Made by a program: the position numbers. A stretch of DNA of 64,000 nt from Escherichia coli (GTDB lineage Bacteria; Pseudomonadota; Gammaproteobacteria; Enterobacterales; Enterobacteriaceae): NCBI RefSeq assembly GCF_045037415.1, contig NZ_CP173438.1. The stretch is one strand, 5' to 3'. Shown piece after piece: positions 22,301 through 25,300 of the stretch; the stretch's first letter is position 1; each line of letters starts with the position of its first letter.

Positions 22301-25300
22301 ACACTTTGGTGATGTTTTTCGCCGCAGTCGCCATAATCTTTTCACCTGCAGAGACGCTGCCTGTCATACTGACCATTGCAACCTTTGGGTTACCCGCCAG
22401 TTCTTGCCCAACGTTTTCACCACGCCCGAGTACAAGGTTAAACACGCCGCGCGGAAGGCCTATTTCATCAACGATTTTGGCGAATGCAATCGCATTGTTT
22501 GGCGTAAATTCACTGGGTTTAATGACGATGGTATTACCGGTCAAAAGAGCGGGAGCCATTTTGCGGGCAATGAGGAAGAACGGAAAGTTCCACGGCAGAA
22601 TGCCGGTAGTCACGCCAAGCGCACGTTTAAACAGAAGGATATTTTCTCCTGGACGATCGCTTTGAATAATCTCGCCCTCGTAACGCCGTGCCCACTCCGC
22701 CATATAATCGATATAGTCCGCAGTAAAAGCCACTTCGACTTCAGCCAACTGCTGGATCTTGCCCCCTTCTTCGACAATCAGCGCACTGATTTCACTGGCA
22801 CGTTCCCGGATCCCGGCGGAGATTTTGCGCAACCAACTGGCGCGTTCAATAGCAGGCAACGCTTCCCATTCTGGTTGTGCACGTTCTGCTGCATCGATTG
22901 CCTTACGGGCATCCTCGGCCTGACCATCGGGAATGCGGGAAATGACAGCCTCTGTAGCAGGGTTAACCACATCAATCCATGCGTCTCCACGCCAGGTAAC
23001 AAACTGTCCATCGATATACATAGGATGTTGAACGGGTACTGACATGGGCGACTCCTGTGATTTGCATGTTTGTTTTTGGTAAATTTATTGTTAATTAACA
23101 TCAATCATCAGAGAGACGGCATCGTGAAAGGACAATTCTGTGAAGGGCTTCATAAAAACAAGTGTAAAAGGAATTAAAGGCAGAAATAAAAGGCAGAAAT
23201 AAAAGTCAGAAATCATGCCCGTTTGCAAACAAGTGGTTCACAAACGGGCAATTTTTAACGTAACGAGCGACTTTCCATCGCCTCGATGAGCACCGCATCA
23301 TGTTTCAGCGTTTGCCATGCCTGAATGACTTCTGCCGGAAAATCAACGTGAACGATAAAATCTCGCCCGCGGGGGCCGTAGCCATCGCTATCATCGCGTA
23401 AACGCGGCAGCTCGCCAGTGAGTAGCGATAGATAACGCTCAACCGGCCATAATCCTTGCAACGGATTAACAAAGATTACACTCTCTGCGTTATTTCCTAA
23501 CTGAGGAACGAATCCGGGATAACTTAACCAGCGTGGTGCATCGGGATTATCCCCGGTTATACGGCGGAACGTCGCCATCGTGCGCCGCTGCATGGTGGGG
23601 TCCTGAACAACGATAGCCGTATGAACTCGTTCTACAGCCTGATTCAATAACGCGATGCTAAAGCGTGCGTTTTCACCGCAGTTTGTTGACTGGTCTTCAA
23701 TCCAGATTTTTTCATGCGGAATATGCCAGAACTGATGAGCGATATCCGCCAGAATGGTAGCTTCTGCTCTGCCAGTGGTGCGGATAGTGTTGTAGTGCGG
23801 ATGCTGTGCGATGGCGCTATACAAAAAAGTTGTCGAGTGACCGATACCACCACTAATCAGTAAAGGAATTTGCTGATCGCGGGCAATCTTACATGCCGCA
23901 TCGATAGTCGGCATAACCGCATTGCCTGCAAGGATCACGCAATCGGCCTGATACGGCACCTCACCGGAGAAATCATCCTGCGCCAGCCACTGTCCGATAA
24001 CATTTATGGCATCTATGGTTGCCGGCGAAAGCGTCGGAAACGGGGTAATATTCATGGTTCCTCCTTATCGTTCCCTTAAGAATACTGCGTGAGATAATAG
24101 TGAGAAGCGGAGCACTCTGAAAGGAGGAAGTCGTATTTCCTGAACTGCCACTCCGCAAGCCTGACATATCTTTTAAGGAAATGCTGTAGATAAACATTAT
24201 TCATCTTGCAGCAGAGAATTGTATTTTTCTGAACTCCTGAATTTTTTCCCTTATCGTTTTTAGAATTAATAAAAAACCCGGCGCTAAATGCTTACCGGGT
24301 TTTAGATTTATCAGGCAAATAGCAGTGTTAACCGCTAATCTGCTCCATCGCCTGCAAAATACGCTTATCCGAAATCGGATAAGGCGTGCCAAGTTGTTGA
24401 GCGAAGTAACTAACGCGCAGCTCTTCTATCATCCAGCGGACCTCTTTCACGTCTTCATCCTCACGACGTGCAGGCGGTAGTTTGTTGATCCATTGCTGCC
24501 ACGCCTGCTGGACGTTTTCGACTTTCAGCATCTGAGCACGGTCGCGATGTGGATCGACCGCCAGTTTTTCCAGTCGTTTTTCAATTGCCTGCAAATATCG
24601 CAGCGTGTCGCCCAGTCGTTTGAAGCCGTTACCAGTGACAAAACCGCGATACACCAGCCCGCCCATCTGCGCTTTAATGTCAGAAAGCCCCAGCGCCATG
24701 GTCATATCCACCCGCCCTTTCAGACGTTTGTTGATATTGAACACCGCAGTGAGGATTTGCTCGACCTGCTTCGCAATATCCACCACCGTGTCGTTCAGTT
24801 CAGCACGGACTTTTTCATGCAGCGCAGCAAAGCCTTCTTCCGTCCAGACCGGGCCACCATTGGCGTCGATCAGTTGATCCACACCGCAGGAGATACAGTC
24901 ATCGATCAGCTCCAGCACTTTGCCATACGGGTTAAAGTACAGCCCCAGCTTGGCTTTGTTTGGCAGCTTTTCGTGCAAGTACTTGATCGGCGATGGAATA
25001 TTTAGCAGCAGTAAACGGCGAAGACCGTTCCACATTGCCTGCTTCTGTTCCAGCGGGTTATCAAACAGTTTGATCGCTACGCTGTCACGCTCATCCACCA
25101 GCGCCGGCCAAGCCTTCACTTTGTAGTTGCCGCGCTTCTGCTCGTAGCTTTCCGGCAGTTGACCAAAACTCCAGATATGTAAACCGCTCTGCTCGATACC
25201 GTCATCCGCCACGGCAGACAGCGTTTCCTGCACTTTGCCTTTCAGGGCGTCTTTCAGATCCTGTAATGAGCGCCCTTCTTTTAGCTTCTTGTTTTTGTCA

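Follow-up and report, generated by a model that had tools for sequence, protein, structure and literature searches.

The ydcF-aldA intergenic region

The window, the 64,000-nucleotide stretch of Escherichia coli DNA analysed here, carries ydcF (23255-24055) and aldA (21606-23045) as neighbours on the minus strand. Gene ydcF encodes a DUF218 protein of 266 amino acids and aldA encodes aldehyde dehydrogenase A, of 479 amino acids; the RefSeq annotation of identical DNA agrees with both. Aldehyde dehydrogenase A has a role in the metabolism of fucose, rhamnose and glycolaldehyde, and fucose and rhamnose are gut-relevant sugars that are a source of lactaldehyde and glycolaldehyde. The spacer between the two genes is 209 bp long in the window and 196 bp long in K-12.

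Transcription of aldA starts 42 nt before its ATG (PMC2760140), a literature position that falls at about 23087 when transferred to the window. The core promoter and 5' untranslated region (23055-23097, minus strand), whose sites were mapped from PMC2760140 and PMC3798270, contain four ArcA direct repeats extending from -10 to +33 (PMC3798270 supplement). The gene is under CRP control, as PMC2760140 states with reference to Limon 1997. A CRP-type site, TATGAAGCCCTTCACA on the sense strand, is read from the sequence and its conservation at 23139-23154 (minus strand) and is centred at -59.5. Its TGA and TCACA are invariant across genera in the sequence comparison.

Two further features lie upstream of the aldA promoter, in the stretch from the ydcF stop codon to the aldA start. 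The first is an array of three tandem 13-bp units on the minus strand. Unit 1 (23176-23188), at about -89 to -101 from the aldA start site, reads AAAGGCAGAAATA on the plus strand and TATTTCTGCCTTT on the aldA-sense strand; unit 2 (23189-23201) is a perfect second copy; unit 3 (23202-23214), AAAGTCAGAAATC, has two mismatches and forms on the sense strand the T-rich tail immediately past the palindrome. Over 23172-23213, TRF gives a period of 13, 3.2 copies and 93% matches, and the exact 13-mer occurs in the 64-kb window only as units 1 and 2. The second feature is an inverted repeat (23216-23250, minus strand), which begins 5 nt past the ydcF stop codon and has 10-bp arms, TGCCCGTTTG (23216-23225) and CAAACGGGCA (23241-23250), around a 15-nt centre. 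An earlier note on this DNA had described the three copies, the palindrome and the place of both, and the sequence and TRF bear this description out. The centre of the palindrome is at about -146 in the window and about -133 in K-12, where the element covers approximately -117 to -149.

Conservation of the palindrome

The arms of the palindrome, GCCCGTTTG and CAAACGGGC, are essentially invariant downstream of ydcF in about 12 enterobacterial genera, and GCCCGTTT..AAACGGGC stands behind ydcF in 56 of the 80 species loci. The total length of the element is 32 nt (33 nt in K-12) across 42 distinct aligned sequences; outside the alignment, two loci have a shortened form of 22 nt and one has a form of 31 nt. 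The central 10 nt are saturated with changes while the arms stay constant. The distance from the palindrome to the ydcF stop codon is 5-17 nt in 58 of 59 loci and 80 nt in one. The earlier reader had overlooked that the palindrome, and not the repeat, is the conserved element of the spacer.

A metagenome scan for the palindrome, in which 80 loci were classified from at least 120 matching stretches, assigned 38 of them to ydcF-aldA; the other 42 are unrelated hairpins from organisms of 34-75% G+C. Neither a second enterobacterial site nor an aldA gene with the palindrome but without ydcF was found among the 80 classified loci. A dispersed palindrome of the REP/BIME type was considered and rejected, the arm 10-mer being found in this palindrome only in the 64-kb window and the metagenome matches elsewhere being unrelated.

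The palindrome and its neighbours are separated naturally in a few lineages. Two species (L038 and L068) have no aldA and yet retain the palindrome; Pseudescherichia vulneris and Kluyvera keep aldA and the CRP site and have no palindrome; in one further locus (L045) both the palindrome and aldA are lost. In Superficieibacter the hairpin is shortened and the sequence of one arm is changed with pairing kept.

The probable ydcF terminator hairpin

On the sense (minus) strand the palindrome is predicted to fold into a hairpin in which 15 pairs enclose a loop of 5 nt. Its folding energy is -22.6 kcal/mol (z = -6.0), a stability that none of 200 shuffled sequences reaches. A stable G+C-rich stem-loop soon past the stop codon, with a T-enriched tail, is found in intrinsic terminators between co-directional genes, and most Enterobacteriaceae with ydcF and aldA in this arrangement have the hairpin behind ydcF. 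The palindrome is most likely the terminator hairpin of ydcF, as judged from this predicted structure and its place. The earlier note had raised this function as a possibility, which is plausible, but had denied the palindrome a T-run on that strand. The latter was inaccurate: the ydcF-sense tail past the stem in the window, TGATTTCT, has 5 T in 8 and passes the terminator heuristic. The K-12 tail, TGACTCCT, has 3 T in 8 and fails it, and over 47 species 0 to 7 of the 8 positions are T (median 4). The 3' end of ydcF is absent from the Term-seq tables of Adams et al. 2021, where the aldA 3' end is listed, and none is given in the TERMITe supplements.

The ydcF hairpin differs from ordinary terminators in several respects. 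Its stem is invariant over about 12 genera and stands at a fixed distance from the CRP site of the next promoter. Its U-tract differs from species to species and is weak in K-12. The outer 10 pairs of the stem are essentially unvarying; changes at pairs 11-12 include wobble and a few double substitutions, and these pairs are kept partly by U.G wobble that is possible on the sense strand only. Stem covariation does not rise above that of shuffles, 56 of 500 of which reach the score, and this test is uninformative because the arms never vary. Conservation alone therefore does not favour an RNA structure over a DNA site. Two controls come from the flanking DNA: the aldA/gapC terminator differs among the genera that keep the palindrome, and the hrpA-ydcF spacer varies in length from 63 to 277 bp.

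A possible distal operator of aldA

The centre of the palindrome lies 73-75 bp from the centre of the CRP site in 47 species loci and in all 27 scorable metagenome ydcF-aldA loci. Exceptional distances are found in the window and ST131 (86.5 bp) and in Superficieibacter (41-44 bp). A distance of 73-75 bp corresponds to about 7 helical turns; 86.5 bp makes 8.2 turns and is out of phase by about 86 degrees. Conservation both in sequence and in position suggests, as far as the comparison of genomes goes, a second role of the palindrome as an upstream element of aldA.

A stronger proposal is that the palindrome is primarily a DNA operator, which we regard as possible but doubtful. A dimeric or tetrameric regulator would bind the invariant 10-12-bp arms, 21 bp apart from centre to centre, at about -133. 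It would be a putative aldehyde- or 2-oxoglutarate-responsive regulator of aldA, and its cooperation with CRP and the proximal promoter would depend on helical phase, so that ST131 would be a natural spacing mutant with altered aldA inducibility. Conserved arms around a variable spacer of almost always fixed length are the pattern of an operator, and so is a fixed distance to the regulated promoter, from which ST131 and Superficieibacter depart. This distance is held while that to the ydcF stop varies. The turnover of a matched ordinary terminator, that of aldA/gapC, in the same taxa, the unconserved U-tract and the lack of significant covariation in the stem argue in the same direction. The arrangement resembles upstream operators that act with CRP in a phase-dependent manner, with an inverted repeat of conserved arms and free spacer about 7 turns upstream. 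It also lies where a distal element of aldA was reportedly placed. The abstract of Limon et al. 1997 is said to state that full aldehyde induction of aldA needs 'distal operator sequences beyond position -119', and this 'distal operator' was reportedly inferred through promoter deletions; the K-12 palindrome, as given above, covers approximately -117 to -149. A literature search for the aldA distal operator returned nothing, and several citing papers give no detail of it.

Several observations stand against the operator. No binding protein and no match to a known motif were identified for the palindrome: a search of the ChIP-exo literature yielded no aldA regulator, and the PurR/LacI-type, PhoB, IHF and DnaA motifs fit neither the arrangement of the arms nor the period of the repeat. 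Unlike known distal operators, the palindrome has no second copy in the 64-kb window or at an enterobacterial metagenome locus, the 42 matches away from aldA being unrelated and of very different G+C, and an operator role is here a candidate one. The palindrome is always the first hairpin past ydcF. It persists in the two species that lost aldA and is missing from P. vulneris and Kluyvera, which retain aldA with its CRP site, and in Superficieibacter the arm has changed with pairing kept while the distance to the CRP site is much shorter. The natural cases of decoupling are compatible with a terminator and with an operator alike; the pattern of loss and retention together with the Superficieibacter hairpin is explained more readily by a constraint on structure than by one on sequence. 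The most specific form of the proposal, in which the palindrome is the aldA distal operator for such an aldehyde- or 2-oxoglutarate-responsive regulator, acts in helical phase with CRP and makes ST131 strains spacing mutants, is rather unlikely.

The 13-bp repeat and its alleles

The repeat was surveyed with a 156-bp query against 5,400 complete E. coli genomes, in which alleles were read from identity bands and alignment spans. The three-unit allele is present in 539 of them, each with an identity of 99% or more to the window. For the remaining 4,861 the identity is below 95%, and every sampled row among them spans 143 or 142 bp, which corresponds to two units; the band between 95 and 99% is empty (0 of 5,400). 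Synthetic queries for one-unit and four-unit alleles found none in 5,426 E. coli genomes, the allele being read from identity bands and record spans since BLAST split these alignments in two. K-12-like alleles and that of EC28 have exactly one 13-bp unit fewer, and no other gap is needed to align the spacer. The extra copy is one of units 1 and 2 and is missing from K-12 and about 90% of E. coli genomes.

Among the strains that carry the three-unit allele are JJ1886, JJ1887, JJ2434, ZH063, ZH193, SaT040, uk_P46212, MNCRE44 and one O25b:H4 strain, all of which we take to be ST131. The recognised strain names and the single sequence background indicate that the three-unit allele is specific to ST131, a pandemic clone. 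SE15, of ST131 clade A, has a 209-bp spacer identical to that of the window, and the marker would predate the split of the ST131 clades. A literature search on ST131 and aldA found nothing relevant.

The earlier note had offered the units as either iterated regulator sites or a slippage-prone tract. Iterated binding sites for an aldA regulator are very improbable. Their position upstream of the promoter and the regular 13-bp phasing in ST131 would agree with such sites, but one of the three units exists in ST131 only, and repeats every 13 bp do not keep helical phase. Other Escherichia species, Citrobacter, Enterobacter and the other genera compared do not share the units, whereas the CRP and -10/ArcA sites are conserved, and this missing conservation already largely refutes the reading at the level of sequence. 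The units coincide neither with the CRP core (23139-23154) nor with the mapped ArcA repeats at -10 to +33, and at the matching position Klebsiella and Enterobacter have a different, ArcA-like motif.

Of the slippage-prone tract, a single slippage-type duplication is likely to stand, and ongoing variation is not. Copy number does vary among E. coli genomes, as the comparison proposed in the earlier note brought out, between two and three units. As only two alleles were seen, and the three-unit form occurs on a single background, the tract is not prone to ongoing slippage. This also makes it hardly credible that the tract is a contingency (phase-variable) repeat in which frequent changes of copy number tune aldA or ydcF. 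Variation between lineages is what such a repeat would share with it; the many length alleles among close relatives that characterize a contingency locus or VNTR were not found in the 5,400 genomes, neither one-unit nor four-unit forms were seen, and the tract is far from the -35/-10 spacer. The likeness to phase-variable simple sequence repeats is confined to tandem repeats upstream of a gene; here there are two stable alleles of 2-3 copies of a long, 13-bp unit, outside the core promoter and the reading frames. The allele distribution, the non-conservation and the known sites elsewhere thus argue against both iterated regulator sites and a contingency locus. Judged by the genomes compared, the 13-bp duplication is a fixed lineage marker and neither a set of regulator sites nor a hypervariable tract.

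The notion that the hairpin terminates a small plus-strand antisense transcript, which would start near the aldA CRP site and have the A/G-rich repeats as its body, has the ATTTTT immediately past the plus-strand stem in its favour and was dropped as scarcely tenable, because a promoter scan of 22900-23400 found no sigma-70-like site on either strand. Moreover, only E. coli and its closest relatives have the plus-strand T-run, which Citrobacter and Enterobacter have lost; the plus-strand stem has mismatches (-19.2 versus -22.6 kcal/mol on the sense strand); and Rfam, searched permissively over 22500-24000, gave two sub-threshold chance matches, neither at the feature.

Origin and significance of the ST131 spacer

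The explanation that is favoured, and held with moderate confidence as a whole, combines a single duplication in the ST131 ancestor, within a non-regulatory spacer, with a conserved palindrome that serves as a terminator and upstream element of aldA. A single tandem duplication of 13 bp, TTTTATTTCTGCC on the aldA-sense strand, would give the three units. It probably occurred when replication slipped between two imperfect 13-bp repeats that were already there, and would have arisen in the ancestor of ST131 and become fixed in the clone, other E. coli keeping the two-unit form. The part of the spacer in which it lies, about -89 to -127 relative to the aldA start site, is T-rich and poorly conserved, and the units would not be regulator sites. 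The palindrome is ancient. As RNA, its hairpin most likely ends ydcF transcription and most likely shields the aldA promoter, which CRP and ArcA control, from read-through. From the conserved arms and the distance to the CRP site we infer that it is also part of the upstream regulatory architecture of aldA, from whose CRP site the duplication moves it to the 86.5 bp seen in ST131.

The duplication resembles other short tandem duplications of the slippage type fixed as lineage-specific intergenic indels, of which the variants described in regulatory regions of ST131 are an example: it is an extra 13-bp unit amid imperfect direct repeats that one clone has fixed and that is missing elsewhere. 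It differs from the usual indels of this type in that the spacer into which it falls otherwise keeps its length across genera, which makes neutrality less obvious here than for most of them. The duplication may nevertheless be entirely neutral.

The 209-bp ydcF-aldA spacer, compared with 196 bp in other E. coli, is a simple marker of ST131. The repeat itself is probably no regulatory array; what the comparison reveals is a palindrome conserved across Enterobacteriaceae in its sequence and its distance to the aldA promoter. A loose end of the 1990s, the inducer-specific control of aldA and the place of the distal element, can now be tested, and ST131 provides a ready-made spacing variant for this test. 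If the spacing is immaterial, the duplication would be an ordinary neutral indel next to an ordinary terminator. If the palindrome is an operator, every ST131 strain would bear a natural 13-bp spacing mutation that rewires aldA induction, and a spacing that matters would set ST131 apart from other E. coli in the handling of the lactaldehyde and glycolaldehyde that come from fucose and rhamnose.

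Layout of the ydcF-aldA region

The ydcF (24055..23255) and aldA (23045..21606) genes are both encoded on the minus strand, and RefSeq records of identical DNA confirm both. In sense orientation, the ydcF stop codon is followed by 5 nt, a hairpin, the repeats, a CRP site and the aldA promoter. The ydcF-aldA spacer is 209 bp long, compared to 196 bp in K-12. The aldA transcription start site is located 42 nt upstream of the ATG (PMC2760140) and maps to about 23087 in the window. Relative to this start, the CRP-type core TATGAAGCCCTTCACA (23139-23154) is centered at -59.5, the repeats occupy positions -89 to -127 and the hairpin positions -129 to -163. 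The ChIP-seq data in the supplement of PMC3798270 assign to aldA an ArcA site of four direct repeats at -10 to +33, and aldA is derepressed 36-fold in the arcA mutant according to the same supplement. A genomic SELEX peak in the K-12 spacer (old coordinate 1486246) belongs to a minor-sigma RNA polymerase holoenzyme and is found in the heat-shock sigma section of PMC5493296.

The neighboring gapC gene (20563-21564, plus strand) is an intact 333-aa reading frame in the window. The annotation of strain SE15 also shows it intact, under the name 'gap', and in strain 720632 it is frameshifted. In K-12, gapC is a known pseudogene. An Rfam match to the Rhizobiales small RNA Atu_Ti3 inside ydcF (23339-23439, minus strand) is weak (E = 0.004; 26.4 bits, with the gathering score set at 50) and almost certainly due to chance.

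The repeat and its two alleles

Every base of the repeat and palindrome reported in the earlier note is borne out on re-reading of the window. Units 1 (23176-23188) and 2 (23189-23201), read directly from the sequence, are both AAAGGCAGAAATA, and unit 3 (23202-23214) is AAAGTCAGAAATC, with two mismatches; Tandem Repeats Finder gives a period of 13, 3.2 copies and 93% matches. Within the 64-kb window the exact 13-mer has no occurrence beyond units 1 and 2. Neither the repeat nor the palindrome looks like a product of chance.

Comparison of the copy number among E. coli genomes, as proposed in that note, showed that it does differ. When a 401-bp segment was searched against 5,426 complete E. coli genomes, 5,413 had a match, mostly over a span of 388 bp rather than 401 bp; when aligned to the window, a K-12-type strain and strain EC28 lack exactly one 13-bp unit and are otherwise gap-free. 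With a 156-bp query centered on the repeat, the complete genomes separated cleanly into two groups: 539 carry three units (identity of at least 99%), none falls between 95 and 99%, and 4,861 lie below 95%. All sampled rows of the last group span 143 or 142 bp and thus represent two units. Synthetic queries detected no four-unit or one-unit allele in the same genomes. There are, therefore, two alleles, and the three-unit allele occurs on a single sequence background. Fifteen genomes carry two units on that very background, with the duplication as the sole difference in that stretch; for strain E27, the identity of 91.7% is made up of 13 gap positions and zero mismatches. Five matches to this chromosomal spacer sit on records labeled plasmid. 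In strain 720632 (NZ_CP025842.1; locus L004, 1801-2957), the spacer is interrupted, between the palindrome side and the aldA promoter, by an IS600-family IS3 element.

The three-unit strains include JJ1886, JJ1887, JJ2434, ZH063, ZH193, SaT040, G749, CD306, uk_P46212, MNCRE44 and an O25b:H4 strain, all known as ST131 reference strains. The 209-bp spacer of SE15, a known member of ST131 clade A, is identical to that of the window, so that the duplication is older than the ST131 clade split. In sense orientation, the ancestral sequence had two imperfect 13-bp repeats, ..TTCTGAC TTTTAT / TTCTGCC TTTAAT.., between which TTTTATTTCTGCC would have been duplicated, as expected from replication slippage, the mechanism that we infer. 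As such, the repeat is of an ordinary kind: a short tandem duplication that has become fixed in a single clone. No mention of the duplication or of the palindrome was found in the literature searched.

Structure and spacing of the palindrome

The palindrome is comprised of the arm TGCCCGTTTG (23216-23225) and its reverse complement CAAACGGGCA (23241-23250); in the window, the exact 10-mer arm occurs only here. The sense strand folds into a stem of 15 pairs with a 5-nt loop (-22.6 kcal/mol, z = -6.0). The plus-strand fold is weaker (-19.2 kcal/mol) because two G.U pairs turn into C.A mismatches. A YdcF search yielded 80 species loci, 56 of which have GCCCGTTT..AAACGGGC behind ydcF. Among 42 distinct sequences, the outer ten stem pairs are essentially invariant and pairs 11 and 12 are mostly retained, with 15 U.G and 5 G.U; covariation is not significant, since almost no position varies. 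The central 10 nt or so have diverged completely; overall, the palindrome measures 32 nt (33 nt in K-12).

The distance between the palindrome and CRP centers is 73, 74 or 75 bp in all 47 scorable species loci, and likewise in 27 of 27 ydcF-aldA loci that could be scored when metagenomes were scanned independently. In K-12 it is 73.5 bp, or 7.0 turns of 10.5 bp; in the window it is 86.5 bp, or 8.24 turns, which amounts to rotating the palindrome by about 86 degrees. Besides the window, only Superficieibacter (loci L067 and L071) departs from the common spacing; there the hairpin is shortened to 22 nt and lies 41-44 bp from the CRP site, about three helical turns away from the 73-75 bp spacing. 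One Superficieibacter species has a changed arm sequence with the pairing kept. Three other comparisons served as controls. Downstream of aldA, the stem of the aldA/gapC terminator differs among Escherichia, Citrobacter, Enterobacter and Lelliottia. The spacer between hrpA and ydcF varies in length from 63 to 277 bp, also where no genes are inserted, and the palindrome begins 5-17 nt (in a single case 80 nt) after the ydcF stop.

Function of the hairpin and of the repeat

The hairpin is the first and sole strong structure after ydcF. Its sense-strand fold is the stronger one, and the tail behind it is enriched in T, with a median of 4 in 8 positions. In the simplest reading the hairpin would be an intrinsic terminator where ydcF transcription stops, leaving the aldA promoter shielded. 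The earlier note allowed for such a terminator, with the reservation that a T-run is missing. This reservation does not hold for the sense strand of the window, where the ST131 tail TGATTTCT passes a terminator heuristic. Through two C-to-T differences, the tail (23205-23215) becomes stepwise richer in T from K-12 (TGACTCCT) through EC28 (TGACTTCT) to ST131, which alone among these three alleles passes. In structure the hairpin conforms to an intrinsic terminator; the K-12 tail fails the heuristic, and the one Term-seq table searched lists no 3' end for ydcF. The hairpin is probably a ydcF terminator or insulator and also part of a length-constrained aldA upstream region, in which the repeats are a duplication of spacer.

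The invariance of the arms and the fixed CRP distance exceed the matched aldA/gapC terminator control, which suggests a second constraint on the palindrome, acting at the DNA level. On a less likely reading, the palindrome would be a true operator to which a protein binds, and aldA control would be altered by the ST131 duplication. Conserved arms and fixed phase, as expected of an operator, are both present. Limon et al. (1997) reportedly found 'distal operator sequences beyond position -119' to be required for full induction of aldA by aldehydes; in K-12 the palindrome extends from about -117 to -149. Natural losses fit the terminator and the operator alike and do not separate them: the palindrome is kept after aldA loss in two species (L038 and L068), is absent from P. 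vulneris and Kluyvera, which keep aldA and the CRP site, and is lost together with aldA in one Lelliottia.

Other rearrangements of the locus were also observed. In Kluyvera ascorbata, an inserted 175-aa outer-membrane-like reading frame on the opposite strand (L079, 944-1724) separates ydcF from aldA; the palindrome is missing, and ydcF has another hairpin. E. coli E69 (L009) lacks aldA, its promoter being cut off after GATTGATGTT. Escherichia sp. MOD1-EC7003 (L005) keeps the palindrome, and cybB follows ydcF, so that aldA and gapC have been deleted. E. albertii (L008) lacks aldA and has a degenerate palindrome beside an aldA/gapC-type terminator.

The repeats had also been proposed to be iterated regulator sites. 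In an alignment of 26 ydcF-aldA spacers from about 12 genera, nearly gap-free over 200 bp, conservation falls into five blocks, namely the palindrome, CRP site, -10/ArcA region, a stretch of the 5' UTR and the ribosome-binding site. Even among other Escherichia species the repeat region shows no conservation, and the CRP and ArcA sites map elsewhere, so that this proposal is abandoned. Nor does the repeat behave as a contingency locus, having two alleles, with the three-unit one on a single background. At the position of the repeat, Klebsiella-like bacteria, Enterobacter, Lelliottia, Kosakonia and genera related to them have a different conserved motif, TGTTR-N6-TGTAA, with 11-bp spacing, 6-22 nt after the palindrome (about 23194-23210 in window coordinates; loci L086-L164 and L026-L073), which is similar to a direct repeat of the ArcA type. 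The motif is missing from Escherichia and from the Citrobacter freundii group, both of which have T-rich sequence at that place.

The duplication is of practical use as a marker for ST131. Scientifically it is of modest value, being a naturally occurring change of spacing beside an unusually conserved element in the aldA promoter.
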